From: an uncultured archaeon
GTDB taxonomy: Archaea; Iainarchaeota; Iainarchaeia; Iainarchaeales; JAAZKV01
Length of the DNA: 64,000 bases
Assembly (NCBI GenBank): GCA_964534045.1
Contig: CAZHNO010000001.1
Coordinates: 224,621 to 288,620 of the forward strand
Direction of reading: 5' to 3'
The notes below the pieces were generated by a model, which saw only the letters and a list, made by a program, of their open reading frames with translations, was not told the DNA's origin and did not search any database. Numbering within the stretch: position 1 is the first letter of the stretch; every line of letters begins with the position of its first letter. Position numbers and translations under genes: made by a program. This document shows, piece after piece, positions 4,163-34,961 of the stretch.

Positions 4163-4234
4163 GCCTTCGTAGCACAGCGGTAGTGCACGGGTTTTGTAAA
4201 CCTGAGGCCGGGGGTTCAAATCCCTCCGAAGGCT
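4163..4234 (+). tRNA. tRNA-Thr (anticodon TGT), intron-less
   Basis: Acceptor GCCTTCG/CGAAGGC, D-arm GCAC-AGCGGTA-GTGC, anticodon arm CGGGT-TTTGTAA-ACCTG, T-arm GGGGG-TTCAAAT-CCCTC, discriminator T. Confidence 0.75.
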
Positions 4235-4451: not shown

Positions 4452-5783
4452 ATGCGTGCTCAAGGAACAATTGAATATTTAGTTATTATTGCTGTTGTTG
4501 TGGTTGTTGCATTAATTGTTGTGGGTTTGCTAGTAACTTTAATGGATTCGGGCGGAGATATTTCTGGAACAAGCAATCAAATTAATTATAATACACAAAC
4601 TCTCGCTTTAAATGACTATATTGTTTCAACTGATGGAAACTTTTTATTAGAAATAAAGTCAAATGAAGTGGGAAACATAACAATAGATAACGTGTCTATT
4701 GATAATGAAGAACAAGATTTTACAACAAACAATACAATCAACCTTGGACAAGAAAGATTAATAAAAATAGAATCTAGCACAACATGTGAAGAAGGGCAAA
4801 CTGTGACAGCACAAACAATCACAATAACCTATACTTCAGCAAACGGATTAACAAAAAAACAAATTTACGAAAATGTATCAATTCCTTGTCAAAATTATAC
4901 AAATCCAAACCAAACCCAACTACTGGGTGGAACAACAACACAATCAGAAGAAGATGCAAGTTGTGATGATTATGCCACAACAGATGGAGAAGATATTACT
5001 GATGATGGAACATATTGCACGGCAGTGTTTTTATCAGATGGAACTTTTACCGCACTAACTTCATTTAACGCAGAAGTTCTTGTTGTTGCTGGTGGAGGCG
5101 GTGGTGGTGGACCAGTTCATGCAGGTGGTGGTGGAGCAGGCGGTCTTGTTTATGATGATTCTTATTCCATTTCTCCAGGAGAAATTGAAGTTGTTGTTGG
5201 AGCTGGTGGTGCTGGTGGTGAAGGATGGAACATAACAACGAGCCCGGGGGAGAATGGTTCAAATTCAATATTCGATTCTATTGAAGCAATTGGTGGTGGC
5301 GGTGGAGCATATTGGTATCAAGGTGCATCCACTGCAGGAATAGGTGGTTCTGGTGGTGGTGCTGCACCTGAGCCAGAGGCAGCAACTGGTGCTATAGGGA
5401 CGGATGGGCAAGGATATGCTGGTGGTGGATCTTATGGTAGTACTAATGCTGGTGGAGGCGGCGGGGCTGGAGAAGCTGGAGAAAAAGCAGTATCTGGAAA
5501 AGCTGGTGACGGTGGGGATGGTGTCGAATATGATATTTCAGGAGAATCTGTTTATTATGCTGGTGGAGGCGGCGGAGGTGTTCACGAAGGTACTGCTACT
5601 ATTGGCCAAGGTGGTTTAGGTGGTGGCGGTGATGGAGGCGGAAATACGGTTGGTACTGCAAATGGCAATGATGGAACTGCTAACACAGGAGGTGGCGGTG
5701 GAGGTGCAGGGGGGACATCAGGGAGTTCTTATGCTGGTGGTGCTGGAGGATCAGGAATAGTAATAATTAGATACTTAAAATAA
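4452..5783 (+). CDS. type IV pilin-like protein (class III signal peptide, QGTIEYL motif) with Gly-rich C-terminal domain
   Basis: N-terminus MRAQGTIEYLVIIAVVVVVALIVVGLL is an archaeal prepilin-type signal. The C-terminal ~250 aa are poly-Gly rich (GGGGGGGPVHAGGGGAGG...). The N-terminal ~163 aa are ~85% identical to the pilin-like protein at 31289. Confidence 0.6.
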   Translation: MRAQGTIEYLVIIAVVVVVALIVVGLLVTLMDSGGDISGTSNQINYNTQTLALNDYIVSTDGNFLLEIKSNEVGNITIDNVSIDNEEQDFTTNNTINLGQERLIKIESSTTCEEGQTVTAQTITITYTSANGLTKKQIYENVSIPCQNYTNPNQTQLLGGTTTQSEEDASCDDYATTDGEDITDDGTYCTAVFLSDGTFTALTSFNAEVLVVAGGGGGGGPVHAGGGGAGGLVYDDSYSISPGEIEVVVGAGGAGGEGWNITTSPGENGSNSIFDSIEAIGGGGGAYWYQGASTAGIGGSGGGAAPEPEAATGAIGTDGQGYAGGGSYGSTNAGGGGGAGEAGEKAVSGKAGDGGDGVEYDISGESVYYAGGGGGGVHEGTATIGQGGLGGGGDGGGNTVGTANGNDGTANTGGGGGGAGGTSGSSYAGGAGGSGIVIIRYLK

Positions 5784-6307: not shown

Positions 6308-6610
6308 TTAATATTTGTGCATAAAGTTATGCTTCACAACTTCTTCATATAATATTTTTTCTCTTGATTGAATCGTATATTTTAAGTTTTCTTTTCTAAA
6401 TATTGTTTCTGGATTTATTTCAGTTGTTAAAATTGCAATTCCCCTTCTTGTTTCGTGTTCCAAATGAATTTGAATTATATCATCATTCAATAATAAATAA
6501 TATTGTTTTTGCGATGTTTCTTCTTTTGAATTTGATTGGAAAGAAAATTCCACCAATAAAACTTCTTTGAAAGGAAGTTTTCCAAATTTTGAATCATACC
6601 ATTGTTTCAT
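6308..6610 (-). CDS. hypothetical protein (100 aa)
   Basis: ATG ORF immediately downstream of the radical SAM gene on the same strand. Confidence 0.3.
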   Translation of the reverse strand: MKQWYDSKFGKLPFKEVLLVEFSFQSNSKEETSQKQYYLLLNDDIIQIHLEHETRRGIAILTTEINPETIFRKENLKYTIQSREKILYEEVVKHNFMHKY

Positions 6611-6626: not shown

Positions 6627-8285
6627 TTATTTAAAGTATTTGTTCCCATTGTAAGCATTTTTGTACTCTTCACTTTTTTCCAATTGATCTGGAACTCTTT
6701 TATATTTTGACAAAGGATCTTTTGCTTTTCCTTTCCAATTTGTTTTAAATTCACTCCATGAAACAGAGTATTGTTTTTGTACTTTATCTCTATAAAGTTC
6801 TGGAACAACATTGAATGCACAGAAAGGAACTATTCTTCCATCAGGCATTGAATAATGAATATTACACCTTTCTACCCTTTGCTGGTCATAATTATATGGG
6901 TCCATAAAGTGCATCATCCCAATAAATAAAGAGTTTGTATGGAATTCCCCAAGCGCAGAATAATCATGTTTTATTAGTGCATTAAACAATAGTTTTGCTA
7001 AGTTAATATTTTTTGGAGCTTTTTTTAAATTAATAAAAGAATTTATTTTTAATAATAATTTTGCTGATTCTATTTTTTTATTTGAACCATTTTTTATTGC
7101 TTCTGCTCTTTCTTTTAAAAAAGCAAATAATCCATCTACATCAACAAACTCTGGCAAGGGCATTATTTTGTTTTTTTCTTTATCTAAGAACACATATGTT
7201 GCTGCTCCGCAAGCAAAGTGATTGTCTAGTGAATATTGCACATTTTCTGTTAGTGCTTCAATAAAATCAGTAAATGATGAAACACAAGGTATTGCAAAAA
7301 AATCTTTTTCTTTTATTGCTCCTTTTGTTTGTTTTTCAATTTTTTCTATTGCCCCTGGAATAGTAATTCTTTGTTTTTCTCTTTGTGATTTTGGCATTCT
7401 TCCAACAAACGAAACTGGTTGGAAATCTATTCCTCTTATTACATCAATATTTTGTAATGCAAAATCAATTATATTCCCAATATCGTTATCATTTATTCCC
7501 TTAATTAAAGTTGGTACTAAAACTATCCCTATTCCTGCTTTTCTACATTCAGCAATTGTTTTTGGCATTTCATAATGATTTTTTGGATTCGTTTTCTTTG
7601 TTGTTCCATCAAAAGAAAGATATAAAGTTGCAACTCCTGCTTTTTTTAATTTTTGAGCATAACCCGGATTGAATGCAATAGTCATTCCTGTTGTGTTTAA
7701 TTGTATGTGTTCAAATCCTTCTTCTTTTGCAACTTTAATTATTTCAAATAAATCTTCTCTTAAAGTTGGTTCTCCTCCAGTAAATTGTATTGCATTACAT
7801 GGAACTGGACTTTCATTCTTCAAATTTTTTAGCATTAATCGTATTTGTTCAATACTTGGTTCATATATTGGGTCGCCTTCTTTTGCATAAAAGAAACAAT
7901 ACCAACAACTCAAGTCACATCTATTTGTTAGAGCAATATTTGCTAGTGCTGTGTGTGAGTGATGATTTAAACACAAACCACAATCAAATGGACAATTAGT
8001 TCCACTATTTTTTATTAAACCAACATTATTATTCAATAAGCCCCTATTTGGAGAAGCATATTTTCTTGCTCTTTCAAATTCTTTTTCTGATTCCCAATAC
8101 ATTTCATCAAAGATTCCATGTTCTGGACAATTTCTTTTTATGTAAACTTTTCCTTTTTTTGCATATATTTCAGCTTCAAGAGTTTTTTTACACTCTGGAC
8201 AAATAGAACGTGTTTTATAAGGCAATTTTTTTCCATACGTGTCTGTAACTACACTTCGTTTATTTTTTTCCAAAATAAAAGACAT
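6627..8285 (-). CDS. radical SAM protein with N-terminal zinc-ribbon (large archaeal-type, function unassigned)
   Basis: CPECKK...NCPEHG zinc ribbon, then CPFDCGLC, then the canonical CDLSCWYC (CxxxCxxC) with FTGGEPTL glycine-rich SAM motif. Conserved C-terminal DGRIVPFCAFNVV region. Confidence 0.7.
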   Translation of the reverse strand: MSFILEKNKRSVVTDTYGKKLPYKTRSICPECKKTLEAEIYAKKGKVYIKRNCPEHGIFDEMYWESEKEFERARKYASPNRGLLNNNVGLIKNSGTNCPFDCGLCLNHHSHTALANIALTNRCDLSCWYCFFYAKEGDPIYEPSIEQIRLMLKNLKNESPVPCNAIQFTGGEPTLREDLFEIIKVAKEEGFEHIQLNTTGMTIAFNPGYAQKLKKAGVATLYLSFDGTTKKTNPKNHYEMPKTIAECRKAGIGIVLVPTLIKGINDNDIGNIIDFALQNIDVIRGIDFQPVSFVGRMPKSQREKQRITIPGAIEKIEKQTKGAIKEKDFFAIPCVSSFTDFIEALTENVQYSLDNHFACGAATYVFLDKEKNKIMPLPEFVDVDGLFAFLKERAEAIKNGSNKKIESAKLLLKINSFINLKKAPKNINLAKLLFNALIKHDYSALGEFHTNSLFIGMMHFMDPYNYDQQRVERCNIHYSMPDGRIVPFCAFNVVPELYRDKVQKQYSVSWSEFKTNWKGKAKDPLSKYKRVPDQLEKSEEYKNAYNGNKYFK

Positions 8286-8380
8286 TTTTGCTCAACCCAA
8301 CTAATAAAACTAGCTATTAAGTGTTTAAAAATATTTCATATTAAAACAAAAGACTATTTGATTTCATAAAAAAGCTATTT

Positions 8381-11300
8381 TTATTTTATGCACTCATTTG
8401 ATGCTTTTTTAATTGAGTTAGCGATGGTTTTTCCTTCAGAATTCTCTTTTTCGTATAAATATTCCTCTGACCACCAATAAATTTCTCTATTGCCTAATTT
8501 AGATACACAAACGCTCTCATTAGAAACAGCATTCATTAAGCTTGTTATGCCATCAATTTGGTTTGTTATTGCTGCATCATTATATAACATTCCTTTTATT
8601 CCTTCCAATGGAATCAAACCTGATTCTTCAATTGAATTTGTTGTTTCAATTATCATTCCTTGTGGAAAAGCCAAACCATAAAATGCATCTGCTGGAGAAT
8701 AAGCCATTGTTTTTGTAAATACTTTTCCTGAATTTTCAGCAGGCAAGAAACCAAAACCATATTTATCTCCTATTCTAAAATCCGGTGTTTCGTTTATATA
8801 AGAAAGCATATTCGTTCCAAAAAAGTCTTTGCAATTTGGCATAGCTGTTAATAAAAATAAATTGTTTGTTGTTGCTTTCAAATCAGTTTTTTCTTTTTTT
8901 AGCCAATAATTCATTATTGATTCTTGCCCTTGATTTGCATTTAATTCAAATAATAATGGTGTTGCTATTGTTGGTGAAAAAATTGTTTTGCTCATTGAGT
9001 AATCCAACAAAACTGCTCTTTTTGAAGCAAAAGAATTTAAGTTCAAAATATTTGACTCTTTCTTTACATTTATTTTTGAAAAAGCATCCTTTTGATTATT
9101 TCCAAGAATCATTCCTTCAGCAATTTTTAATTCTGAACCACTATTCAATGCAGTGCCATAATATCTTCTATCATTTGCTGCATTCAAGCCAACTTTTCCA
9201 TCAAATGGAGTGTAATAAAAAGGACTATAATTTTCTTTTATTGGTTCTTTTAAATACAAATCAATAATAATATTTGAATTTGCTACCCCATTTTCTATTA
9301 TTGGAAATTCAGTAAAATCCGCAATTATTTTTACTGAATATAATCCAGCATCAGGAATAACAAAATCATATTCTGGTTTAAAATCAGTTGTTTCATTAGT
9401 GAAATAAAATTTCTTTGGTTGTTTAAAATAAATATACCATCCTTTTAGTGGGTCAGTAAAATTAGGGCTTGAATCAAGGAAAACTCGTGTATAATAATTT
9501 GTAAAATCACTTTGAAATTCTAAACCATAACCATCCCTTATCAATTGAACATCAAACTTTAATAAGTCAAGCATCTGTTCTGCACTACTTATCAATGGTT
9601 CATCAAAAAAGGAATCATAATATTCAGGCACAATTGCTTCTTGTGAAGAGTGATAATAAATCGCTGGTTTTCCATCATAATAGCGAGTTGTTAAAGGTAA
9701 GAAACATGAAGCTTCTTGTTGTAAAGCAAACTCTGTAGGAGTCATTCTTGTTAGTGCAAGCATTGCATAATTTTGTGGACAATTAGTTGCTGCTGAACTA
9801 ACAAACTCATTTAAAACGCCTAATTTTTTGGTTAATAAAATTGAGAATTGTGTTGCATCCAAATAATTTTCTTTTGCTGTTTCTGAATTAATTGCATCCC
9901 ACTTCCAATCCAAAATTATTTTTGGCAAAGCTTCTTTTCCAGTATCTCCAATCAAAGAAGCTTTTTCACAAGTAGCATTTGATTCACTTGAATAATCTTT
10001 TCTTGGTTTGACATTTACTTTAAAGTGATATTTTTGTTCAATTAATTCAACACTATCATCAGGAATATTAAAAGGACCAAATTCACCAGTAACATTCATT
10101 GTTGGAGAATGAATGTGCTTTTCTGCATTCAATGAAACTGTAGCATAAGTATTTTCTTTTATTCCAGCATTAGAAAATATTACTCCAACTTCTTGTTTAT
10201 CAAAAACTCCAAAAACTTGTGGATCAGTGAAAGACCAATAAGCTAAAACATTTGGATTTGATACAACAACTTTTTTTGCATCTTGTAACAAATTAATTTT
10301 ATAATCAACTAATTTTAATTTTACTCTGTTATCACAATCTTCTAATAAATTTGCTTCACTAAAAAATAAATTATTTTTTTTATTTTTGTTTTCTTCAAGG
10401 TTACCAAATACAGAAACATATAATCCTTGCATAGTGTTTTCTGTAGTATAAACTCCCCCATCATATGCTCCATTCACAAAACCATTACTAATTAATGTTC
10501 CAATCATTCCAACTAATTTTTCTTTATCATATTCTCCAAAATCTGCTGGAATGTTTAAAGAATCTAGATAAGTTGAAGCATCACTAGAAAGTTTCTCTAA
10601 CTCCGACAAATGTTTTGCAGCTTCAATTGCAGCATCCAAACTAGTATTAAAATTTGCTAATCCTAGTTGTAATTCATACAACACATCTGTCATTTCTGTA
10701 AACTTTGTCATAGCATTTATCAAATCACTCAAATAATTTGCATTCAATGCTTTGTATAATTCCCAGGCTTGATAAATATTATTTAGTGTTGATAATAGAT
10801 TAGCTATTTTTGCTATATTTGCTACTGTATTACTTTGGGCTGAAGCTATTGCAGTAATCGCAAATTCAGAAGATGCAATGAACATTGGACACATACAACC
10901 AGCATTACAATATGTACCATTACAACACGAAGCAAAATAAGACATTGCTGTTGCTTTTGCCAAAACCATTTCTGTTTGTGCTTCTGTTAAACTTGTTTGT
11001 ATTATTGTGGCTTTTGTTTCTAACACTCCTATTTGTGTTAATATTTGTTGCATTAGTTGTGCTATTGCAATTATTAATTCTTCTTCAGATGCTTCGGAAT
11101 CATCTTGCAAAGTAGTTAAATCATCTAAAGTTTCTAAATGTTTTTTTAGAGAATTATCTAAAACCATTTGTGCATTATCTGCATCACTTTTTGCTAAAAG
11201 CAAGTATTCATAAGCTTCAAAATCTTCTTTACTAGATGTTGACAAATCATTTATTGCAGCTGATTCAAGAGCTAAATCCAAATAATCAGATAAAGAAGTT

Positions 11301-13390
11301 AAATTATCTTTTAGCTCAATTAACATTTCATTTGTTTCCTCAGCATTTTCTCTAGCGGATTCTACATCAATTGAACTATTTTTTGCAGTAAGTGCTTCTA
11401 ATTGTTGATACAAACTATACAACTGACTAGCAGTGGCAACAAGTTGAGTAACATCAGCAGCATAAGTTTTTGTTGTTCCATTTGCAACCAACATTGATTT
11501 TAGTGATAATGATGAACTTCCCATTGCCGGAGCACATGATGCTGACAAATTAGTAGCACTTGTTACTGCAGCAGTTGCGGTATCAACATTAGTTGATAGT
11601 ATTATTGCATCTGCAGATAGTGCAGAAATGCTAGTAACCAAACTTAGTATTTGACTTGCTAATTGAGTTTTTTGTGAAGTATCCAAATCACCAAGTGAAT
11701 CTTCAACTTCTTTTAATGATTCTATCGCGTCATTTAATTCATCTAATGTTTCATTAATATAACCATCAAATTCTTTTCCTTCTAAATAAGCTCTTTTTAT
11801 TTTTTCATTTTCTTGTATTGATGTTGAATATGCTGTGCTTCTAACTGAATCAATATAAGGAATGGTTTTGAAAAACATTGATTGGTATAAACCATTTCCT
11901 GCATATCTTTCTGGATTGTTGTATAAATCATTAGTCCAGTTTTTTGAATTAGTGAACGTTCCTGTTAGTGGTAAACCTGAACCAATTTCTGCGCCTAGTG
12001 AACTTTCATACAAATTACAAATACTTGAATCAATTTCTATTTCTTCAGATAATTCATTATTCATTACTCTAATAGAATCTCTTGAACCCCTTTCAAATAA
12101 AGAAATTGAAAATTTATCAGGAACTAATAATTCATTTGTTGGTTTTACAAAAATTTCTTTTTCCCCAACAAAAGTCTTGTTTATTCCTGGCAAAGAAGCA
12201 TGCACTGTTAAACCATAAATTCCAGCCAAATCAACTCTGTTAATAGTAATTGTTTTTGTTGGAGAAGATTTTGTTAAAGTAAAAGCTGATGTGTTTAGTT
12301 CAATTATTCCTTCTTCTGCTCCTCCGGAACAACCAGCATCATTGTTACACAAAAAAATATTTATTTTTTCTGAATGACATTTACTTGAATTAATTGTTAT
12401 TGTTGCAGAATCATTTTCATTTTCTATTATTGCATCAACAACATCAATTTTTATACATTGTTCTAAATTTTCATTTGCTACTTCAAAATTTATTTTTTGC
12501 TCAGAATTGTCAATTTTTAATATAACAGAAAACTTTCCTTTTTCACCTTTTTTATTTGCTAAAGGAACATAATAAATTATTGCTTCATAATCACCAATAT
12601 TTGGGGCTGAATAAACTGATAATTCATCAGGAGTTAACAAAGAACCTTTTCCATTAGAAAAAATTATTTCTACATTTCCAATTCTTTCACTACCCCATTG
12701 AACACTTGCTTTCAAATCAGAGTAAGTTTCACAAGCAACCCTTAATTTTATTGGAGCTTCTAATAAGCCAGCATGAGTAGAATCAGAAAAAAATCCTTTA
12801 TTTACTAACAAACAACCCGTGCCAATAAATTCTTCAAAAAATATTTGATAAGGAATTTGTATTGTCATTACTTCAGAACCATCTTCTGATTCAAGAGTAA
12901 TAACAAAATTAAATTCAAAAAAATTCCCATCAACTAACTCTGAGTCAATTCCCAAATCAGCAAAATCAACTGTAAAAGTTACTGAACCATCTTCATTAAT
13001 TATAATAAATTCTGATGAAATGTTTGCAACAATTACCCCCTCACTGTTTGTTATCACCACATTAGTTGGTTTTAATTGTACTCCACCAGCATCCATTCTA
13101 AGCGTAATATTTCTAGAACTATCTTGTCCAGCATTAGTTATTATTGGCCTTCCAGGATTAGAAAAAGTATCAACTAATTCTCCATTAATTGTTAAGCTTC
13201 CTGTAAAAGCAATATCATTTTGATCTGGACTAGTTATTTTTATTCTATTAGTGCCTTGTGAAGGAAAAGCCAATAAGGCAATTAATAAAATAACTATTAT
13301 TGCAACAACTATTCCAATAATTATTCTCTTATCTGGTAAAGGACTTCCTGCTTTAGGTTCCTCTCTGTTATAATAACTTTCAACCTGCAT
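8381..13390 (-). CDS. giant membrane-anchored surface protein (1669 aa)
   Basis: N-terminal signal-anchor helix (IIIGIVVAIIVILLIALLAF). The first ~550 aa are beta-rich Ser/Thr/Asn-rich extracellular sequence. Residues ~560-900 are S/T/A/L-rich alpha-helical low complexity containing a Cys cluster CCNGTYCNAGCMCP. The remainder is a large C-terminal domain. No catalytic motif recognised. Confidence 0.6.
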   Translation of the reverse strand: MQVESYYNREEPKAGSPLPDKRIIIGIVVAIIVILLIALLAFPSQGTNRIKITSPDQNDIAFTGSLTINGELVDTFSNPGRPIITNAGQDSSRNITLRMDAGGVQLKPTNVVITNSEGVIVANISSEFIIINEDGSVTFTVDFADLGIDSELVDGNFFEFNFVITLESEDGSEVMTIQIPYQIFFEEFIGTGCLLVNKGFFSDSTHAGLLEAPIKLRVACETYSDLKASVQWGSERIGNVEIIFSNGKGSLLTPDELSVYSAPNIGDYEAIIYYVPLANKKGEKGKFSVILKIDNSEQKINFEVANENLEQCIKIDVVDAIIENENDSATITINSSKCHSEKINIFLCNNDAGCSGGAEEGIIELNTSAFTLTKSSPTKTITINRVDLAGIYGLTVHASLPGINKTFVGEKEIFVKPTNELLVPDKFSISLFERGSRDSIRVMNNELSEEIEIDSSICNLYESSLGAEIGSGLPLTGTFTNSKNWTNDLYNNPERYAGNGLYQSMFFKTIPYIDSVRSTAYSTSIQENEKIKRAYLEGKEFDGYINETLDELNDAIESLKEVEDSLGDLDTSQKTQLASQILSLVTSISALSADAIILSTNVDTATAAVTSATNLSASCAPAMGSSSLSLKSMLVANGTTKTYAADVTQLVATASQLYSLYQQLEALTAKNSSIDVESARENAEETNEMLIELKDNLTSLSDYLDLALESAAINDLSTSSKEDFEAYEYLLLAKSDADNAQMVLDNSLKKHLETLDDLTTLQDDSEASEEELIIAIAQLMQQILTQIGVLETKATIIQTSLTEAQTEMVLAKATAMSYFASCCNGTYCNAGCMCPMFIASSEFAITAIASAQSNTVANIAKIANLLSTLNNIYQAWELYKALNANYLSDLINAMTKFTEMTDVLYELQLGLANFNTSLDAAIEAAKHLSELEKLSSDASTYLDSLNIPADFGEYDKEKLVGMIGTLISNGFVNGAYDGGVYTTENTMQGLYVSVFGNLEENKNKKNNLFFSEANLLEDCDNRVKLKLVDYKINLLQDAKKVVVSNPNVLAYWSFTDPQVFGVFDKQEVGVIFSNAGIKENTYATVSLNAEKHIHSPTMNVTGEFGPFNIPDDSVELIEQKYHFKVNVKPRKDYSSESNATCEKASLIGDTGKEALPKIILDWKWDAINSETAKENYLDATQFSILLTKKLGVLNEFVSSAATNCPQNYAMLALTRMTPTEFALQQEASCFLPLTTRYYDGKPAIYYHSSQEAIVPEYYDSFFDEPLISSAEQMLDLLKFDVQLIRDGYGLEFQSDFTNYYTRVFLDSSPNFTDPLKGWYIYFKQPKKFYFTNETTDFKPEYDFVIPDAGLYSVKIIADFTEFPIIENGVANSNIIIDLYLKEPIKENYSPFYYTPFDGKVGLNAANDRRYYGTALNSGSELKIAEGMILGNNQKDAFSKINVKKESNILNLNSFASKRAVLLDYSMSKTIFSPTIATPLLFELNANQGQESIMNYWLKKEKTDLKATTNNLFLLTAMPNCKDFFGTNMLSYINETPDFRIGDKYGFGFLPAENSGKVFTKTMAYSPADAFYGLAFPQGMIIETTNSIEESGLIPLEGIKGMLYNDAAITNQIDGITSLMNAVSNESVCVSKLGNREIYWWSEEYLYEKENSEGKTIANSIKKASNECIK

Positions 13391-13463: not shown

Positions 13464-14429
13464 TTAATCTCTATCAATAATTTTTGTTTTGTATTCTGAT
13501 TTTTTATTCTTCAACAAAACAATTCTTGAATTTTCTTTCTCACTCTCAAATTTATAAGAAGGCATTTTTTCTAACAATTTCTTTGAAAAATCTTGAACTT
13601 CAAAATGCGTAGGCATATTTTCTTTTTTCAATCTTTTACGCGAAAGACCAAGCCACATATAACTTTTGATTTCAACAAAATCTGCTTCTACTACTTCTAA
13701 AAGCTCAGCAAACTCTTCCAAATCTTTTTCTGAATCATTCATTCCTTTTATCAAAGTCAAACGAATTACTATTCGTGTTGGGAGTAACTTCAATAATGCA
13801 AGTGTCTTCAAATAATTCTTCCAACCATTTTTTTCTGTATTGCAAGAAATTTTTCTATAAATTTTTTCGTTTGGTGCTTGCATTGAAACGTATAATTGAG
13901 TTGGTAATGCATTTTCTTTCCATAATTTAATTAAAGCATTAGGGTTTTGTCCATTTGTTACTAAGAAAACTGTTTCTGTTGCAGGGCGAGCTTTCAATAA
14001 TTTAATTAATTTTGATAAGTGTTTGTAAAGGGTTGGTTCTCCACTCAATGAAATTGCCCAGTGTTTTTGTTGCATTGATTTATCAACAACTTCTTTATCA
14101 AGCGAACCATAAAAACCTTGTAATAATTTTTTTCTCTCTTTAACTAAATTTTCAATCATTTTTTCAGGGTTAACTTCTTTTCTTTTTTGCAACGACATAT
14201 ATTCTTTTGGACGCCAACAAAAAATACAAGCATTATTACACCAAAAAGTTGTGGGAGCAATTTGATGACAAGAAAGAGTGTCAGCTCCATAAAAGTCTTG
14301 TTTGTAACATTTTTCTTTTCCATTAGTGCGAAGAGCTTTCTTATTCCACTCACAAATCTGAATACTTGAATGTTCAAAAAAACCATATTGCTTTTTTTTG
14401 AAATCATTTATTAAAGAATCCAATTTCAT
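13464..14429 (-). CDS. taw1: tRNA 4-demethylwyosine synthase Taw1 (TYW1, radical SAM)
   Basis: QICEWNKKAL..CYKQDFYG..CHQIAPTTFWCNNACIFCWRP..AISLSGEPTLY..LVTNG..PTQLYVSMQAP..IKGMND..FVEIKSYMWLG aligns along the full length with archaeal Taw1 (e.g. MJ0257). Confidence 0.75.
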   Translation of the reverse strand: MKLDSLINDFKKKQYGFFEHSSIQICEWNKKALRTNGKEKCYKQDFYGADTLSCHQIAPTTFWCNNACIFCWRPKEYMSLQKRKEVNPEKMIENLVKERKKLLQGFYGSLDKEVVDKSMQQKHWAISLSGEPTLYKHLSKLIKLLKARPATETVFLVTNGQNPNALIKLWKENALPTQLYVSMQAPNEKIYRKISCNTEKNGWKNYLKTLALLKLLPTRIVIRLTLIKGMNDSEKDLEEFAELLEVVEADFVEIKSYMWLGLSRKRLKKENMPTHFEVQDFSKKLLEKMPSYKFESEKENSRIVLLKNKKSEYKTKIIDRD

Positions 14430-14481: not shown

Positions 14482-16029
14482 ATGAATAAAAAATTGAATA
14501 ATATTGCACAAGGAACAATTGAATATTTAGTAATTATTGCAATTATTATTGTCATTGGTTTACTTGTCGTTCAATTATCTTTGAGTTTATTTGATTCTGA
14601 AAGTGTTTCTAACACTAGTAATAAAATTGGTTCCAAAATTGGTTCTGGGAGCATTAGTATTTTAGAAGCAGTTGCTGATGATAATTCTTTAGTAATTGCT
14701 TTATCTTCAATAGGAACAGATGGAATAAATTTAACCAAAATTACTATTGATGGAGTAGAAAATTATTATGAAAATCAATACTTACTTAATGCTCGTAGTT
14801 TTATATTAACAGAATTATCAAACAATTGTGCCTGTTCTAGTATGCAGAGTTCTAGAACTTGTTCATTTCAATTCACTTACACTACAAGAAATGGTTTAAC
14901 AAAAACAACAGACCCAATAAACGTTACTATTAATTGTACAACAAACATAAATCAAGAAAATCCAAATTATACTCAACCAACAATACAAGATTGTTATGAT
15001 TTAACAGAAGATCCAATCCAAATTTGTACGCTTAGTGATTTGAATAAAATCAGAGATGATTTAAGTGCAAATTATCAACTAATGAACAATATTGATGCTT
15101 CATCTACAAACACTTGGAATAATGGAGAAGGTTGGGAACCAATCGGAGATGGAGATGAATATTTTACTGGAACATTTGATGGACAAAATTTTGAGATAAG
15201 TAATCTTTACATAAATCGAACAAATACTTATGTTGGCATGTTTGGTTGGACAAGTGGCCCAATTTCTAATGTTGGTTTAACTGATGTAAATATCACTGGA
15301 AGTAGTGGAATTGGCGGAATTTCTGGAAGAAATCATTCAACAATAAGTAATTCAAATGTTTCTGGAAATATTAATGGAAATAATAAAATTGGAGGCATTA
15401 GCGGTTTTAATTTTAGTACAATAACAACTTCACATTCAAGTGCAAACATTACTGGAACTTATGAAATTGGAGGAATATCTGGGTACATTGATGGAGGGAC
15501 AATTACTTTATCTTATTCAACAGGAAATATTACTGGAACTGGTGATAATATAGGTGGAATTTGTGGGCGTAATGAAACTGGTTCAATAACAAAATCATAT
15601 TCAACAGGGAATATCTTTGGAGAAGACAAAATTGGTGGTTTACTTGGTTATAATGATGGTGGAACAATAAGTAATTCTTATTCCACTGGAAATATAACTG
15701 CCAGTGGCAGTAGTGTTGGTGGGTTGATTGGCTCAACAACAGGTGGAACAATTAATTATTCTTATTCCATTGGAGAAGCAAGTGGAGTTAGTAATGTTGG
15801 CGGATTAGTTGGAAATAATATTTTAGGAACAGCAACAAATTCATATTGGAATGTTACAACATCAAACTTAGACACATCAGCACTCGGAGAAGGAAAAACA
15901 ACATCTGAGATGAAAACACAATCAACATTTACTAATGGAAGCTGGGATTTTGACACTATTTGGCAAATTCAAGAAGACACAACATATCCATATTTAATAG
16001 ATAATATTCAAAACCCATTACCCCAATAA
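14482..16029 (+). CDS. type IV pilin-like protein (class III signal peptide) with C-terminal GLUG-type repeats
   Basis: N-terminus MNKKLNNIAQGTIEYLVIIAIIIVIGLLVV. The C-terminal half is tandem ~22-aa repeats of the form IGGISG.N.STI.NS.S.GNITG / VGGLIG...GGTI.YSYS.G. Confidence 0.6.
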   Translation: MNKKLNNIAQGTIEYLVIIAIIIVIGLLVVQLSLSLFDSESVSNTSNKIGSKIGSGSISILEAVADDNSLVIALSSIGTDGINLTKITIDGVENYYENQYLLNARSFILTELSNNCACSSMQSSRTCSFQFTYTTRNGLTKTTDPINVTINCTTNINQENPNYTQPTIQDCYDLTEDPIQICTLSDLNKIRDDLSANYQLMNNIDASSTNTWNNGEGWEPIGDGDEYFTGTFDGQNFEISNLYINRTNTYVGMFGWTSGPISNVGLTDVNITGSSGIGGISGRNHSTISNSNVSGNINGNNKIGGISGFNFSTITTSHSSANITGTYEIGGISGYIDGGTITLSYSTGNITGTGDNIGGICGRNETGSITKSYSTGNIFGEDKIGGLLGYNDGGTISNSYSTGNITASGSSVGGLIGSTTGGTINYSYSIGEASGVSNVGGLVGNNILGTATNSYWNVTTSNLDTSALGEGKTTSEMKTQSTFTNGSWDFDTIWQIQEDTTYPYLIDNIQNPLPQ

Positions 16030-16092: not shown

Positions 16093-16533
16093 ATGGAAGA
16101 ACAAATACAATTAATCGCAAATTATAAAGATTGGAAGGCAATCAAAAAAATAACTATAACAGAATTAACAGAGCCTTTAGTAATAGCAGAATTTTTGGCT
16201 AGCTTAACATATAGTGTGGATGGAAAAATAGAAGATAATTTGAGAAAAGTTATTGAATTAGATAAAGTGGATAAAGCAATTGCTGAGCTAAAATTAGATA
16301 AGGGCGATGTTGGAAAAGCAATTGAAGAAGTAAATTCAAGAACAGTTAGCAAAGTAATAAATGAAATCATCAAATTAGATAAATTTGCTGGACCAGTTCA
16401 AAAAGAGTTAATGCAAATGTGTAAAATTTACGCAACAAAAAAAGCAATTAACACATGTGGTTTGTTAGTTGAATATTATCAAGCAGATATCCCAACATTA
16501 AAAAGAGCAAAGAAAAATTCAGCAAAGGAATAA
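16093..16533 (+). CDS. hypothetical protein (146 aa)
   Basis: ATG ORF with upstream GGGTGA RBS; no recognised motif. Confidence 0.35.
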   Translation: MEEQIQLIANYKDWKAIKKITITELTEPLVIAEFLASLTYSVDGKIEDNLRKVIELDKVDKAIAELKLDKGDVGKAIEEVNSRTVSKVINEIIKLDKFAGPVQKELMQMCKIYATKKAINTCGLLVEYYQADIPTLKRAKKNSAKE

Positions 16534-16593: not shown

Positions 16594-17442
16594 ATGATTG
16601 GAGAATTATTTGTTGGAGAATTACTTGTCAATCAATTTTTACAAACATTTATGCCAACTTTTAACTTATTTTTTCAAACAATAACTTTTTTTGGACACCC
16701 TGCTTTATGGCTTTTAATTGCAGCATGGTTATTTTGGTTAGGCAAAGAAAAAAAAAGTTTTACTCTGGTATCAATTGTATTATTTTCTTCTCTTATTTCA
16801 GGAGCATTAAAATTTATTATTGCTAGACCTCGTCCAGAAGGATTAATTGTTTTAGAAAAAACACCCACACAATTATCAATGCCATCAGGACACTCTGTTT
16901 TAGCTGGAACAATTTATTCTTTTTTTGAAAAAAAGGTTTATCCAAAAGAAAGAATTTTACTTTTTATTTTAATGATGCTCACTGCAATTTCTAGATTGTA
17001 TTTAGGAGTGCATTACATTAGTGATGTTTTTGCAGGATTGCTGATTGGTTATTTTATTGGAAAACTAATGCTTGTGCTTGAAAAGAAAATCAAAAAATCT
17101 TCTTTAAAAATAACAAAATTCAAAGAAGAAAAAGAATTATTTATTTTATTTATAGTTTCTATCGCATCACTTGTTTTGTTACCAGAGACATTTGCTCTTG
17201 GCTACTCTGTTTTAGGATACTACTTTGGTTTTGTGATTTATAGACACAACAAAATGAAAATAAAAAATTCTTGCAACCAATTAATACTTGGAACTTTAAT
17301 ACTAGCAATACTTGCATACTTTGCTTTTACTTTGGAAGGATATTATAGCTTTATTTTATTCTTCGTTGCTGGAATGTTTATTACAATAATCTGGCCTACT
17401 GCCTTTAATAAAGGCTGGCGAAAAGAATTTGACATTTGCTAG
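16594..17442 (+). CDS. PAP2-family membrane phosphatase (phosphatidic acid/undecaprenyl-diphosphate phosphatase-like)
   Basis: PAP2 motifs KFIIARPRP, PSGHS, SRLYLGVHYISD in a polytopic membrane protein. Confidence 0.65.
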   Translation: MIGELFVGELLVNQFLQTFMPTFNLFFQTITFFGHPALWLLIAAWLFWLGKEKKSFTLVSIVLFSSLISGALKFIIARPRPEGLIVLEKTPTQLSMPSGHSVLAGTIYSFFEKKVYPKERILLFILMMLTAISRLYLGVHYISDVFAGLLIGYFIGKLMLVLEKKIKKSSLKITKFKEEKELFILFIVSIASLVLLPETFALGYSVLGYYFGFVIYRHNKMKIKNSCNQLILGTLILAILAYFAFTLEGYYSFILFFVAGMFITIIWPTAFNKGWRKEFDIC

Positions 17443-18818: not shown

Positions 18819-20045
18819 ATGAAAAAAGTATTTTTTGTTGTGTTGTTAGTTTTATTATTGCTTTTACTTTTTGGTTGCTCTAGTCCAGAAGAAATAGCAA
18901 AACAAAATTCAACAATAAATAATTTTATTGAAGAAAATCCTGATGTTGAATTTAAGAGTATAAAAAAATTGTCTGAAGATGATTTTAGAGAAGAAAGAGA
19001 TTTTTGGGAGAGTAATTGTGATCAAAATATTTCTTTAGCAGATTATTACAAAATTATTTTTGAGGGGGCTGAAGTAAAATTAACTACTCTTTTTGAAACA
19101 AGTCAAATGAAATTAATTTGTGGAGTAATAGAAGGAAAGGCTGAAACAAAAGCAATAAATATCAACACAAATTCTAATACAAAAAACGATAATCCAAATG
19201 ACATGCCAGAACAAGCTGATGATGAAAATGCTTTGCCAAATAATGAAACTCATTTAACTGAAGAGCCAGAAGAATGTGAAGAAACTTGGATTTGCACTGG
19301 TTGGAGTGATTGTGTTGTTGGAAAACAAACAAGGAATTGTCAAAAAATAGTTGATTGTGGATATAATTCAGAAGAAGAAATTGAGCGAAGTTGTGATAGT
19401 GTATCAACTTGCACTGAAGATTGGAGTTGTACAGAATGGAGTTATTGCGAAGGCGCAAAATGCAATTCCTATGGCTGTGTCGGAGGAATCAAAACAAGAA
19501 CATGCTTAGATTTAGCAAATTGTGGAACAACTGAAAATAAGCCAGAAGAGTCCCAAAATTGTGAATGGGAAATAACTTGTGTAAGTAATGATAACACCTG
19601 TCATGAAGGATGCATATACCAAAATGATAATGATTGTGATTGTATTACTGATTCTGATTGCTTAACTAATGATTCAGATGCTGCGGCAATTTGTGACTCC
19701 GGATATTGCATTGATTCTAGTGTGCCCCAACCACTTCAAATTGGAGGAAACTTGGATGCATTCTGCACAGCATATATGAATAACTGCCAAGAATCCTCAA
19801 CGATTGATTTAATCGGAGGCACTAATGGTTTTGATAATTTGCAAGCACAGGTGTATGAACCAACTAATAATCCAGGGGAATGTAATATCAAAGTTCTTTG
19901 GGATAATGGAAACCAATACATTGTAAATTTTTGGGTTGATATCGGAGACTCTGTAGAGATTTGCAAACATAATGTTCCAATTTATTTTTATAATTCAGCA
20001 AATGAAATTTGCGGATCATTTCCTTGTTATGGGGAATTCCCTTAA
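18819..20045 (+). CDS. secreted Cys-rich (lipo)protein with repeated C-x-W-S-x-C modules
   Basis: Signal peptide with lipobox-like LLLLFGCSS. Repeated modules CTGWSDCVVGKQTRNCQKIVDCG / CTEWSYCEGAKCNSYGCVGGIKTRTCLDLANCG. 38 Cys overall. Confidence 0.5.
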   Translation: MKKVFFVVLLVLLLLLLFGCSSPEEIAKQNSTINNFIEENPDVEFKSIKKLSEDDFREERDFWESNCDQNISLADYYKIIFEGAEVKLTTLFETSQMKLICGVIEGKAETKAININTNSNTKNDNPNDMPEQADDENALPNNETHLTEEPEECEETWICTGWSDCVVGKQTRNCQKIVDCGYNSEEEIERSCDSVSTCTEDWSCTEWSYCEGAKCNSYGCVGGIKTRTCLDLANCGTTENKPEESQNCEWEITCVSNDNTCHEGCIYQNDNDCDCITDSDCLTNDSDAAAICDSGYCIDSSVPQPLQIGGNLDAFCTAYMNNCQESSTIDLIGGTNGFDNLQAQVYEPTNNPGECNIKVLWDNGNQYIVNFWVDIGDSVEICKHNVPIYFYNSANEICGSFPCYGEFP

Positions 20046-23485: not shown

Positions 23486-24595
23486 ATGAAGAAAATAATT
23501 TTCGCACTATTTTTGCTTTTATTAGTTGGTTTTGTTAGTGCCCTAACAATAGACGAAATTAATTTACAAAGTGGAGACAAAACATCTGTTGTTTTTTTTA
23601 AAACAGAAACTTGTCCAAATTGTGCAGCAGTTGATGCTTGGTTGCAAGGAATAGAGCCAGAATATGATAATGTAATTGTTTATAGATTGTATCCAAATGA
23701 AGAAACTGAATTGTTAATGAAATTATATGATATTTACAATGTTCCCCTTAATGAAAGAAATTATGTTCCAATAATTTTTCTTGCAGACAAATATTACTTG
23801 GGAAGGGATCAAGCAATTAATAATTTAGAAAATGATTTCAAAAGTTTTACTGAAAAAAAAGAATTACTAACAAGCACAAATAATGGAAATGAAGAAAACG
23901 AGATAAATATTTTTTATGTTTTGTCATTAGCATTAGTTGATGCTGTAAATCCTTGTGAATTAGCTGTGCTAATAATTTTGATGACAGCAATCTTAACAAG
24001 ATTCCCTGAAAAAAAAGGAAAAGCTTTGAAAGCTGGTTTGCTTTTTACTTTAGCAATTTTCATAATGTATTTTATTTTTGGGTTATTTTTAGTTGAATTA
24101 TTTTCTTTTGTGTCAAACACATTTGGTTATGCATTCATGATAATTATTGCAATTTTAGCAATAATTTTAGGATTACTAAATATTAAAGATTATTTTAATT
24201 ATGGTGGCGGAGGGTTCATAATGGAAGTTCCACAAAAATGGCGTCCAAGAATGAAAGCAATAATTAATGGAACTACTTCACCAAAAGGAGCTTTTATTGT
24301 TGGTTTAATTGTTTCATTTTTCTTAACCCCTTGCACTGCTGGACCATATTTTATTTTCAGTGGGATAATGTCACAAATTGGTTTGTTAAATGCACTTCCT
24401 TATTTGTTAATTTACATGATAATTTTTATTTCACCAATGCTAGCAATAACTTTCATAACTTACTTTGGTTTTGCTCAAGTGCATGACATGGAAGAATGGA
24501 GAGGAAGAAACTTAAAAAAATTACATTTGATTGCTGGAATAATAATGCTTGCAATTGGTGCTTGGTTAATACTCACAACATTTGGAATAATTTAG
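23486..24595 (+). CDS. thioredoxin-like domain fused to a DsbD/CcdA-type transmembrane thiol-disulfide transporter domain
   Basis: Signal peptide, then CPNC redox motif in a Trx-like domain, then a polytopic domain with conserved NPCE and TPCTAGP cysteines (DsbD_2/CcdA pattern). Confidence 0.55.
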   Translation: MKKIIFALFLLLLVGFVSALTIDEINLQSGDKTSVVFFKTETCPNCAAVDAWLQGIEPEYDNVIVYRLYPNEETELLMKLYDIYNVPLNERNYVPIIFLADKYYLGRDQAINNLENDFKSFTEKKELLTSTNNGNEENEINIFYVLSLALVDAVNPCELAVLIILMTAILTRFPEKKGKALKAGLLFTLAIFIMYFIFGLFLVELFSFVSNTFGYAFMIIIAILAIILGLLNIKDYFNYGGGGFIMEVPQKWRPRMKAIINGTTSPKGAFIVGLIVSFFLTPCTAGPYFIFSGIMSQIGLLNALPYLLIYMIIFISPMLAITFITYFGFAQVHDMEEWRGRNLKKLHLIAGIIMLAIGAWLILTTFGII

Positions 24596-24797: not shown

Positions 24798-24950
24798 GCC
24801 CTGATAGTCTAGTGGTTAGGATGCACCCCTGTCAACTCGCGCAAGCGAGGTAGGAAATCCAAAGTTTTCTTTGGGCTACCCTACACCTTTCTTTTCCTAA
24901 AAGAAAGGGGCGGTTCGGGTGCGACTCGGGTTCGAGCCCCGGTCAGGGCG
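24798..24950 (+). tRNA. tRNA-Asp (anticodon GTC) with an ~81-nt intron at 37/38 (approx. 24835..24915)
   Basis: Acceptor GCCCTGA/TCAGGGC, D-arm GTCT-AGTGGTTA-GGAT, anticodon stem CACCC/GGGTG flanking CTGTCA|intron|C, T-arm TCGGG-TTCGAGC-CCCGG, discriminator G. The intron folds into several hairpins including a CTCGC-GCAA-GCGAG tetraloop hairpin. Confidence 0.6.
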
Positions 24951-29967: not shown

Positions 29968-31236
29968 TTATTTATTCTCAACTAATTTGAAAACATTATC
30001 ATTTATTCTAACTCTTTCTTTTACTTTGATTCCAACCATGTCGCCTTTTTTTGCACTTGTTCTTTCTTTATGTTCTGTTTGCATTGACTCTAATTTCTGC
30101 TCTAAAAAAGTTGTTACTCCTTCAATAATTAATGAATCACCAATTTGCACAGGTGCAAGGACACGAACTTCTGCAACATTTATTTTCGCATAATACTTTC
30201 TAACAATTCCAACCTGGACTCTTTTTTGCTTTTGATTGCTTCCTTGAATATCAGTAATATCTTTTTCTGTTGGTTTTGAGAGGTAGAAGCCTGTTGAGAA
30301 TTTTCTATTATACACTTTCCCAAGCTCTGTGTTCCAATTAGCAATTTTTTCTTTAGTGAATGTTTTGCTTGCAACTGAATCAATTCCTTCTCTGTAAACT
30401 CTTGTTACATAAGAAACATAATCACTTGGTTTTGTTCTTCCTTCAATTTTCAAAGCACAAACTCCAGCACTAATTATTTTGTCTAAGAAGTCAATTGTTT
30501 TCAAATCTTTTGCTGAAAGAATTGTGTTTCCAAAAATTTCAACTTCTTTTTTTTCAAAATTTGGTTTATCACCATCAAGGAAAAAGGCTCTCTGCGAAGC
30601 ATTCCCGCGCGCGGATTTTTCCTCAAGGAAAAATGGGCGCCTGCAAGGTTGTAAGCATTGCCCCCTATTAGCGCTTCTTCCAAATAATTCGTGCGATAAA
30701 AAACATCTTCCTGAAATGCTTATGCACATTGCTCCGTGAATAAAAACTTCTATTCCCATTTTCAATTTGTTTGCTTTTGAAACAATTTTTTTTATTTGCT
30801 CAAGCGAAAGTTCGCGTGCAAGCACAACTCTTTTTGCACCCAATTTTTTGTATTGTTCTAATGCTAATGTGTTTGCTATTGATGCTTGTGTTGAAACGTG
30901 TAATTCTAATTTATATTTTTTTACTAAATACATTACTCCTAAATCAGAAGAAATTACTGCATCTACTTTTGCTTCTTTTGCTTTTTTTAAAATTTGTTCT
31001 ATTTTTTTTAATTCTTCATCAAAAGTTGTTGTATTTAATGCTAAATATCCTTTCACTTTATTTTCATGCAAATAATTCATTAATTTTTTTAATTCATTTA
31101 AAGTAAAGTTTGTTCCAAGGTCACGCATATTGAAACCTTTGATTCCAAAATAAACAGCATCAGCTCCATTTTTCACTGCTACAATCGCGGTTGTAAAATT
31201 TGCTATTCCTGTAAGAAGTTCTGGTTTGTTTTTCAT
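29968..31236 (-). CDS. peptidase-U32-family protein (RlhA/UbiU/TrhP-like Fe-S enzyme family)
   Basis: N-terminal TIM-barrel-like GADAVYFGIKGFNMR and signature E.FIHGAMCISISGRCFLS with a downstream RGQCLQPCRRP Cys cluster. I trimmed the start to MKNKPELL because the longer ORF runs into the divergent pilin gene upstream region. Confidence 0.7.
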   Translation of the reverse strand: MKNKPELLTGIANFTTAIVAVKNGADAVYFGIKGFNMRDLGTNFTLNELKKLMNYLHENKVKGYLALNTTTFDEELKKIEQILKKAKEAKVDAVISSDLGVMYLVKKYKLELHVSTQASIANTLALEQYKKLGAKRVVLARELSLEQIKKIVSKANKLKMGIEVFIHGAMCISISGRCFLSHELFGRSANRGQCLQPCRRPFFLEEKSARGNASQRAFFLDGDKPNFEKKEVEIFGNTILSAKDLKTIDFLDKIISAGVCALKIEGRTKPSDYVSYVTRVYREGIDSVASKTFTKEKIANWNTELGKVYNRKFSTGFYLSKPTEKDITDIQGSNQKQKRVQVGIVRKYYAKINVAEVRVLAPVQIGDSLIIEGVTTFLEQKLESMQTEHKERTSAKKGDMVGIKVKERVRINDNVFKLVENK

Positions 31237-31288
31237 AAAACAATTTAATAGCGAAACAAATTTAAATAAAAAAGAGAAACAATTTGTG

Positions 31289-33219: not shown

Positions 33220-33462
33220 TTGCCTGGTGATTGGTTGGCTGATGAAAAAAGACACTATTTAGTTCCTGAACATGTACTTATCAGGAAAGAGAAAGCCGAC
33301 GAATTAATGAATGAACTAGGAATAAAAAAAGCTTCTTTGCCAAAAATTTCTAAACTTGATCCTGCTGTAAAAATTTTGAAGGCAGATAGGGGAGATGTTG
33401 TAAAAATTATTAGAGATTCTTTAACAGCTGGACAAACTACTTATTATCGGAGGGTTGTTTAA
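33220..33462 (+). CDS. rpoH: DNA-directed RNA polymerase subunit H (Rpo5)
   Basis: HYLVPEHVLIRKEKADELMNELGIKKASLPKISKLDPAVKILKADRGDVVKIIRDS matches the RpoH fold. The only in-frame start is TTG (first ATG is at residue 30). Confidence 0.7.
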   Translation: MPGDWLADEKRHYLVPEHVLIRKEKADELMNELGIKKASLPKISKLDPAVKILKADRGDVVKIIRDSLTAGQTTYYRRVV

Positions 33463-34934: not shown

Positions 34935-34961
34935 ATTGAGGATTATGTGGGTTGATTAAAG

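Follow-up and report, generated by a model that had tools for sequence, protein, structure and literature searches.

We analysed a window of 64,000 nucleotides (nt) from an uncultured Iainarchaeota archaeon (assembly GCA_964534045.1, contig CAZHNO010000001.1, positions 224,621 to 288,620 of the forward strand) and focused on one gene of 5 kb, hereafter the giant gene, and its product, the giant protein. The view that the giant protein is an N-terminally anchored, largely extracellular, multi-domain surface protein of a DPANN archaeon, with a helical rod in a variable loop, is well supported. As to its role, we favour, at roughly an even chance of being right, a type II-anchored (N-in, C-out) cell-surface spike that would serve as an adhesin-like contact protein. 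To our knowledge, the building of the envelope and cell contact in DPANN archaea are largely obscure, and none of the surface components of Iainarchaeota has been characterised.

An intact gene encodes a membrane-anchored, multi-domain protein

The giant gene and the regions of its product are as follows.

8381..13390, minus strand: the giant gene, whole open reading frame (ORF), 1669 amino acids (aa) plus the stop codon, ATG start
13328..13390, minus strand: aa 1–21, short N-terminal tail, cytoplasmic by presumed topology, with a conserved Lys/Arg cluster (K21, R22) right before the membrane helix
13265..13327, minus strand: aa 22–42, single transmembrane helix (signal anchor), from hydropathy and AlphaFold2 (AF2)
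12476..13243, minus strand: aa 50–305, two less conserved immunoglobulin (Ig)-like β-sandwiches (~50–185, 190–305) with conserved C193 and C220, from AF2 (predicted local distance difference test, pLDDT, 60–90), Foldseek and conservation
12017..12475, minus strand: aa 306–458, most conserved module of the N-side, from AF2, alignments and conservation
10337..12016, minus strand: aa 459–1018, helical insert, with long helices at 501–569, 572–618, 620–670, 676–711, 716–758, 769–822, 835–937 and 956–978
11501..11581, minus strand: aa 604–630, first uncharged Ser/Thr/Ala-rich turn, with C619, homologous to the second tip
10868..10954, minus strand: aa 813–841, second uncharged tip (29 aa), including the Cys cluster CCNGTYCNAGCMC
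10889..10927, minus strand: aa 822–834, Cys cluster CCNGTYCNAGCMC, a small β-hairpin (823–834) between the two longest helices according to AF2
10448..10525, minus strand: aa 956–981, highly conserved Gly-rich helix at the exit of the insert, consensus ERLVGLIxTLVxNGFVNGAYxGGVYTT, 0.56 identity, from AF2
8384..10345, minus strand: aa 1016–1669, C-terminal domain (~650 aa), family-defining, from motifs and conserved cysteines

The giant gene is a single uninterrupted frame, as the earlier note, made from the DNA letters alone, had reported. At the ~29% GC of the window, stop codons are expected at ~0.08 per random codon (about 8% of random triplets), and the chance of 1669 stop-free codons computed from this composition is ~e^-141; the open frame is therefore not a product of chance. 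Eleven full-length proteins of 1629–1697 aa aligned with the giant protein from end to end at 37–46% identity. Overall, end-to-end alignable orthologues of 1625–1697 aa and 34–46% identity are encoded in ~16 non-redundant loci of Iainarchaeota-type metagenome-assembled genomes (MAGs), and the closest matches came from ‘Candidatus ainarchaeum’ and Iainarchaeum MAGs. Because orthologues of the same length align end to end, sequence comparison indicates that the ORF is a real, intact gene and not a pseudogene or an assembly artefact.

It is extremely improbable that the ORF is a pseudogene or a mis-assembly, or that its product is cytoplasmic and the hydrophobic N-terminus of no significance. The frame is uninterrupted, same-length orthologues occur across many independent assemblies, the relatives contain extracellular-type Ig-like domains and many cysteines are conserved. 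The anchor is also kept in the family: an N-terminal hydrophobic segment was present in 98 of 107 full-length representatives. A frame interrupted in the raw reads, or homologues that were cytoplasmic and lacked the anchor, had been named in the earlier note as grounds for dropping its proposal, and the assembled sequences point the other way.

The sole strongly hydrophobic stretch of the giant protein comprises aa 17–48, with a maximum of 3.62 in Kyte–Doolittle hydropathy over 19 residues (KD19). In models built from 11 sequences, AF2 predicted a helix at aa 21–41, and K21 was almost invariant in the orthologue alignment. At 26 aa, the uncharged stretch (aa 23–48) exceeds what is typical of cleaved signal peptides, and the segment is best read as a signal anchor, as had been proposed. 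All 20 cysteines of the protein lie past the membrane helix. The protein is acidic, its four putatively extracellular segments having a total net charge of ~−95.

According to AF2, β-sandwiches extend over aa 50–445, with three well predicted and a fourth of low confidence within aa 50–458. In Foldseek searches, this region matched tandem Ig-like, ASH, macroglobulin (MG) and adhesin domains with E values of 8e-8 to 1e-4. The module at aa 306–458 comprises a β-sandwich (314–415) with a CxNDxGCSGG motif (C338, C348, C354) and a low-confidence segment (417–458) that ends at C458. Its mean pairwise identity among orthologues, 0.55 over aa 306–416, was the highest of the N-side. The tandem β-sandwiches seen with AF2 and Foldseek, the N-terminal anchor and the domains of the relatives are those of generic Ig-repeat surface adhesins, and the region is presumably exposed outside the cell. 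The β-rich extracellular region and the domain order of the earlier note thus both hold.

The C-terminal domain defines an undescribed family

The large C-terminal domain recognized in the earlier note proved to be the hallmark of a family. It contains the motifs ALPK..L.W.W, YLDATQ, SPFYYTPFDG, ATPLL, C.DF.G, PD, GI.GM.YN and VCVS, and its cysteines C1019, C1141, C1204, C1229, C1520, C1628 and C1667 are kept in ~90% of 106–119 relatives. In a deep alignment, the invariant positions were mostly Pro, Gly and Cys, together with one Asp, and included no catalytic-type residues. The last ~200 aa form a β-sandwich, the sole part of the domain that AF2 modelled confidently. Foldseek matches of the C-terminal model to jelly rolls of picornaviruses, C1q and phage receptor-binding proteins were insignificant (E ≥ 0.013, TM-score < 0.2) and were not used.

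To delimit the family, we performed an exhaustive HMMER search with aa 471–1669 as the query. Counted as clusters at 50% identity, the relatives numbered 329 at E ≤ 1e-3, and 110 of these clusters reached E ≤ 1e-30. In every full-length match, a protein of 1400–3100 aa, a region of ~650 aa at the extreme C-terminus was matched. When the C-terminal profile was run in another, word-indexed protein search, only 5 fragments came back. Two blocks are common to the giant protein and its larger relatives, namely the module at aa ~160–464 and the C-terminal domain; the larger relatives (2300–3100 aa) have additional N-terminal arrays of CarboxypepD_reg, Big_1, SpaA and MG-like domains. The giant protein has the features that define the family: YLDATQ, SPFYYxPFDG, ATPL, GIxGMxYN and VCV at the C-terminal end, an N-terminal transmembrane helix and the CxNDxGCSGG module.

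Searches of the full protein against Pfam, NCBIfam, PHROGs and PADLOC gave nothing usable, and Pfam found no family in common among 25 family members. PDB sequences were searched with the giant protein alone, with a profile of 11 sequences and with a C-terminal profile of 25 sequences, which gave biased coiled-coil matches or nothing. Literature searches retrieved no description of the family. Among named genomes, the family occurs in Iainarchaeum, ‘Candidatus ainarchaeum’, archaeon GW2011_AR10 and Micrarchaeota, the taxa being those named in the sequence records; the scan relied on peptide patterns from close subfamily members and may therefore underestimate the range. On these comparisons, the family appears to be an undescribed one of Iainarchaeota and Micrarchaeota. 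Several genomes have at least two copies, often adjacent, and no second copy of the giant gene was found within the window.

Distant paralogues of 2250–2700 aa occur in a conserved cassette at loci L024 (321–14254), L025 (archaeon GW2011_AR10 complete genome), L033, L044 and L057 (I. andersonii). The cassette begins with a paralogue of ~1020 aa that shares the C-terminal domain, followed by the gene of the 2250–2700-aa paralogue and then by four to five small polytopic membrane proteins of ~138, 105, 78, 101 and 113 aa, the first of which was found in 20 loci. Next come a coiled-coil protein of 170 aa and a protein of 497 aa. The small membrane proteins and the 497-aa protein had no Pfam, NCBIfam or PDB match, and the cassette is absent from the window.

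A hypervariable insertion site lies between the conserved blocks

We mapped both conserved blocks onto 45 relatives and measured the segment between them, whose length varied between 36 and 875 aa within the family. The flanks of this segment are homologous by eye, with ...DKF.I.L...G.RDS..V.N..L.....I....C on the N-side and C.D....L.LPDY.INL..DA on the C-side. The flanking cysteines, C458 and C1019 in the giant protein, co-occur: both were present in 36 sequences, neither in 3 and only one in 4 (Fisher p = 0.0075). Because of this co-occurrence, we infer that a C458–C1019 disulfide closes the base of the insert; neither AF2 model includes both residues. What the helical region occupies is this hypervariable insertion site; it is not a connector of the anchor to the head. 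This argues against the stalk suggested in the earlier note, as the site is down to 36–50 aa in some relatives. The rod may still serve as a spacer or strut, its length being strictly conserved among orthologues.

The fillings of the site differ in kind. Of 114 long relatives, 25 have in their central region an internal segment that is strongly hydrophobic and rich in Gly and Ala (KD19 ≥ 2.2, up to 3.0). This segment sits inside the insertion site wherever the flanks were mapped or, in five relatives, read by eye. These hydrophobic inserts are ~65–210 aa long and are flanked by the conserved Cys pair (e.g., P0055, aa ~1445–1523; P0061, aa ~1444–1537). By analogy, they resemble a membrane hairpin or an internal fusion loop. 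Elsewhere in the family the insert is short and non-hydrophobic (36–71 aa, KD ≤ 0.85), in some members a polar loop of 36–50 aa. A rod occupies the site in the subfamily of the giant gene and, in part, in some 2500-aa relatives; strongly hydrophobic segments were found only in paralogues without a rod.

The insert of the giant protein is a predicted helical rod with a Cys-rich tip

AF2 predicted eight long helices over aa 501–978 (~480 aa), with pLDDT mostly 80–93. The helical segment of the earlier note is thus present, although larger than the ~350 aa given there, the insert as a whole spanning aa 459–1018. The charged residues of the rod are grouped at aa 520–580, 660–780 and 900–960, whereas aa 580–650 and 780–870 have hardly any charge and an abundance of Ser, Thr, Ala, Gly and Cys. 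From helix lengths, secondary structure and charge pattern, we deduce that the rod may consist of two stacked four-helix bundles and be about 15–17 nm long. Its far pole would carry the C619 turn and the Cys cluster at aa 822–834.

This cluster, which had been placed correctly within the helical region, was found in all orthologues with variable sequence, length and number of cysteines (3–9). The tip is only mildly hydrophobic, with a KD19 maximum of 1.44 here and 0.43–1.47 in orthologues. Residues 617–735 are homologous to residues 832–947 (hhalign probability 95.5%, E = 1.4e-8), indicating that the rod grew by internal duplication, because the two units of a tip plus a descending helix are homologous. 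Among orthologues, the identity of the rod was the lowest of the whole protein (0.18–0.38, ~25%), with a gap fraction of 0.00–0.01. The length of the rod thus appears to be under selection, its surface being free to vary.

A surface spike is the favoured reading

In the model that we favour, the Ig-like domains would lift a bipartite head, formed by the module at aa 306–458 and the domain at aa 1016–1669, off the membrane. The loop between the two head parts, closed by the putative C458–C1019 disulfide, would serve as the hypervariable insertion site and, in the lineage of the giant gene, carry the ~15–17-nm rod, a stack of two four-helix bundles produced by internal duplication. The uncharged far pole of the rod, with its wealth of Ser, Thr, Ala and Gly, would bear the Cys cluster. 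The protein may thereby project past the cell envelope, such that the conserved head and the rod tip touch an external surface or a partner cell, and would act as an adhesin or contact sensor and not as an enzyme. Its gene would belong to the vertically inherited core, have promoter- and terminator-like signals to itself and lie outside any radical SAM or pilin operon. A spike or adhesin is favoured because of the Ig-like stalk, the extracellular-type domains of the relatives and the multiple paralogues of varying reach, as well as the lack of catalytic-type invariant residues and the exposed, fast-evolving rod.

Several points weigh against the spike. The N-terminal segment may be cleaved as a signal peptide instead of being retained as an anchor. 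The AF2 model of aa 930–1669 is poor (mean pLDDT 55), and the fold of the head and the C458–C1019 contact are absent from it. N-glycosylation sequons in the giant protein are at chance level (21 versus 19.5 ± 3.9 expected). Moreover, conservation in the family is highest in the distal domain. Adhesin tips that diversify under pressure from a host seldom show this, and the pattern would also suit a structural or oligomerising role. Finally, Iainarchaeota have been reported as possibly free-living (PMC10936187), in which case there may be no host to bind.

Alternative roles: envelope builder or membrane-active device

The conservation of the distal domain would be as expected for lattice contacts, and is one of several features that suit an S-layer-type canopy, in which the head domains would oligomerise as an outer layer and the rod would point back to the membrane, setting the width of the pseudo-periplasm. 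The giant gene is core, syntenic and vertically inherited, and the length of the rod is invariant at ~25% identity. The sole PDB sequence match is to the Ser/Thr-rich coiled coil of SlaB (8QOX chain B, E = 0.007). Single-chain, giant, Ig-rich S-layer proteins have been documented (10.64898/2026.08.21.746120), coiled-coil or Ig stalks are used likewise in SlaB, tetrabrachion and the Pyrobaculum S-layer protein (SLP), and the pseudo-periplasm of a Micrarchaeon is 20–25 nm wide (10.1101/2021.04.28.441871), near the deduced length of the rod or the Ig stalk. Against this, Micrarchaeota already possess a PF05123-type S-layer protein, which is their most abundant protein, and S-layer proteins typically contain few sulfur amino acids (10.1101/2021.04.28.441871), whereas cysteine is frequent here. 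Several paralogues of very different length per genome are hard to fit into one lattice. The SlaB match is compositionally biased (8.8 of 16 bits), and the 11-orthologue profile matched no other S-layer protein among PDB sequences. A canonical S-layer protein was rejected: Pfam and NCBIfam searches of the whole protein found no S_layer_N, S_layer_C or MSTP domain, and the anchor is N-terminal, the C-terminus (...NECIK) having no transmembrane helix. We regard the canopy, the main alternative to the spike, as possible, if on the doubtful side.

The hydrophobic segments of the 25 relatives raise another alternative, that the element at the insertion site enters the lipid membrane of a partner, or the cell's own, to tether, perforate or fuse it. 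In the giant protein, the predicted β-hairpin at aa 823–834 between the two longest helices has the topology of the ClyA ‘β-tongue’, and the tip is uncharged over 29 aa. Yet the tip is only mildly hydrophobic, the short non-hydrophobic inserts of some relatives mean that membrane insertion cannot be the function common to the family, and no sequence match to the HlyE or HBL families was found. We consider such a device unlikely. A more specific version, in which the Cys-closed loop is a cassette site holding a membrane-interacting element that the protein, tethered to its own DPANN cell at the N-terminus, plants in the membrane of another cell, strikes us as improbable. The elements would be the Gly/Ala-rich, fusion-loop-like hairpin in some paralogues and, here and in others, the 15–17-nm rod with its uncharged, Cys-rich tip. 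If true, the device would be a tether, pore or fusogen behind the cytoplasmic bridges and the lipid and metabolite uptake proposed for DPANN.

The neighbouring genes mark a chromosomal position and not an operon

The features around the giant gene are as follows.

13464..14429, minus strand: Taw1, tRNA wyosine radical SAM enzyme (Radical_SAM and Wyosine_form domains), upstream of the giant gene
6627..8285, minus strand: Tes, tetraether lipid synthase, 552 aa, zinc ribbon and radical SAM (NF045702, 715.6 bits versus a cutoff of 450), downstream of the giant gene
14482..16029, plus strand: pilin-like gene, class III signal peptide AQGTIEYLVIIA (PF04021 match), GLUG repeats, weak similarity to an IgA1-protease N-region
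4452..5783, plus strand: pilin-like gene, class III signal peptide AQGTIEYLVIIA (PF04021 match), Gly-rich domain PF21722
13416..13446, minus strand: upstream intergenic signals, a T6 run just past the Taw1 stop and then TATA-like boxes TATATAAA and TTATAAATA, 30–48 nt before the ATG
8368..8373, minus strand: T6 run 8 nt past the stop of the giant gene, archaeal terminator-like, read from the sequence

The neighbours were described correctly in the earlier note: Taw1 lies upstream and the 552-aa zinc-ribbon radical SAM protein downstream, both co-oriented with the giant gene, and the flanking genes are pilin-like. The gaps to Taw1 and to the radical SAM gene are 73 and 95 nt, respectively, and both pilin-like genes carry class III signal peptides. 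The class III N-terminus AQGTIEYLVIIA is identical in the two pilin-like proteins, which are probably both pilin-displayed surface proteins. Such a setting, together with the Cys-rich motif of the giant protein and the GLUG-type pilin-like genes near it in 5 other loci, could suggest a functional block in which the radical SAM enzymes modify the Cys cluster, as in the thioethers of ribosomally synthesized and post-translationally modified peptides (RiPPs), or in which the giant protein is the tip or cargo of a pilus. We consider this very improbable, and the block is largely refuted by the identity and the arrangement of the neighbours. Tes and Taw1 are confidently assigned, their substrates are a lipid and tRNA, respectively, and neither is a SPASM maturase.

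In the ~16 non-redundant orthologue loci, Taw1 was nearby in 10 and Tes in 5, with side and orientation varying. The GLUG pilin-like gene was nearby in 5 loci and the Gly-rich one had no counterpart in any, so the pilin-like genes are not conserved neighbours either. The T-runs and TATA-like boxes in both intergenic gaps fit a monocistronic gene, which is weak evidence in AT-rich DNA of 29% GC. In three lineages, the downstream neighbour of the giant gene is a paralogous giant gene of 1.7–2.2 thousand residues. The neighbourhood is thus a conserved chromosomal position and not an operon. Two identities were rejected on the same grounds. The giant protein is not a type IV pilin or pilus tip, as the class III signal peptide is absent from it and present in the flanking genes; nor is it a RiPP-like precursor with an adjacent maturase, given the identity of Tes and Taw1, the partial synteny and the variable sequence of the Cys cluster.

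The most consistent neighbours are a DUF2666 gene (16093..16533, plus strand) and a PAP2 phosphatase gene (16594..17442, plus strand), which were found in 10 and ~8 of the ~16 loci, respectively. In loci without Taw1, DUF2666 lies directly and divergently upstream of the giant gene.

Tes is of interest in its own right. It lies on a contiguous, Iainarchaeota-type chromosome segment of uniform ~29% GC and is syntenic in five independent MAG loci. A 100-aa ORF without a family match (6308..6610, minus strand) lies downstream of it and is conserved beside Tes on four further independent MAG contigs, as seen in six loci, of which three represent the same contig. Tes matches in DPANN MAGs have been suspected to be host-derived (Zeng et al. 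2022, PMC8941075). Judged by its sequence context, the Tes of the window looks native, which would mean that this DPANN lineage could itself make membrane-spanning glycerol dialkyl glycerol tetraether (GDGT) lipids.

The wider window is chromosomal

The rest of the window encodes a split RpoB, RpoA', EF-2 and other housekeeping proteins. The earlier note had raised the possibility that the helical core is a tape-measure-like element. This was not borne out: there was no match to a phage tape-measure family, a scan of viral contigs revealed no viral relatives, and the only PHROGs match was one of 28 residues to a family of unknown function (E = 0.002). A phage tape measure was rejected, the neighbours being Taw1, Tes, RNA polymerase and EF-2 genes and not tail genes.

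Other features of the window include the following.

33462..36776, plus strand: RNA polymerase subunit B split in two genes, B'' (490 aa) and B' (604 aa)
24798..24950 and 4163..4234, plus strand: tRNA genes, the first of 153 nt versus a 71-position model and probably with an intron
23486..24595, plus strand: membrane protein with DsbD_2/SfLAP domains, which could carry reducing power across the membrane and would then bear on the many conserved cysteines of the surface proteins of the window
18819..20045, plus strand: candidate surface protein, 408 aa, with a lipoprotein-like N-terminus and weak BamK/YgdI matches
31226..32506, plus strand: candidate surface protein, 426 aa, with a concanavalin-like Laminin_G_3 domain

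Relation to known systems

The family of the giant protein is large (329 clusters) and outside all domain databases searched, and it takes up 5–9 kb per copy, often with several copies per ~1-Mb genome. Its architecture, a conserved bipartite head with a hypervariable loop occupied by either a helical rod or a hydrophobic hairpin, provides concrete constructs for functional work. Identification of the neighbours as Tes and Taw1 also removes a misleading radical SAM lead.

Among characterized proteins, the Pyrobaculum S-layer protein PySLP (Thermoproteota, 292 kDa) is likewise giant and combines an anchor, a tandem Ig-like stalk and a conserved distal region in one chain. Its relatives vary in the number of Ig domains and contain insertions (10.64898/2026.08.21.746120), as does the family described here. 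PySLP has a C-terminal anchor helix, a basic tail and no helical rod, whereas the giant protein is anchored at its N-terminus, carries a helical insert of 560 aa and ends in an unrelated domain; searches revealed no homology between the two. SlaB, the stalk of the Sulfolobus S-layer (PDB 8QOX, PMC10903991), is likewise a membrane-anchored envelope protein with β-sandwiches and a long Ser/Thr-rich helix. However, SlaB is a protein of 475 aa with a C-terminal anchor that forms a trimeric, parallel coiled coil, whereas the giant protein has a predicted antiparallel bundle inserted in a loop. The match to SlaB in 8QOX, a SlaA–SlaB assembly, covers query positions 521–640, that is, 120 residues of Ser/Thr-rich helix, with E values of 0.007–0.012; restricted to the helix and compositionally biased, it was not taken as evidence of homology.

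The α-pore-forming toxins of the ClyA family (AhlB, AhlC, SmhA, MakA and Hbl-B) are soluble, whereas the bundle of the giant protein is an insert in an anchored protein of 1669 aa. Pfam gave no HlyE or Bacillus_HBL match, the tip is not strongly hydrophobic and generic bundles scored higher, which speaks against membership of the ClyA/Hbl/Nhe toxins. SiiE, the C123 region of antigen I/II and α-2-macroglobulin-like MG arrays, matched by Foldseek with E values of 1e-4 to 5e-7, likewise use tandem β-sandwiches to project a distal domain. The giant protein differs from bacterial giant Ig adhesins in its N-terminal membrane helix, in having no RTX, LPXTG or Ca-binding repeats, and in the conservation of its distal domain instead of the repeats.

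The large PKD/YVTN surface proteins of Mia14, from other DPANN, are likewise very large, secreted or anchored, and a notable share of a reduced genome; giant surface proteins of this type have been proposed as DPANN host-interaction factors (PMC5498576). By contrast, the giant protein has no PKD, YVTN or CARDB domain, and its family is vertically inherited and syntenic, not strain-specific or horizontally acquired. Giant anchored surface proteins are thus a kind already known in archaea; the head domain of this family is undescribed, and its cassette-like insertion site is unusual.

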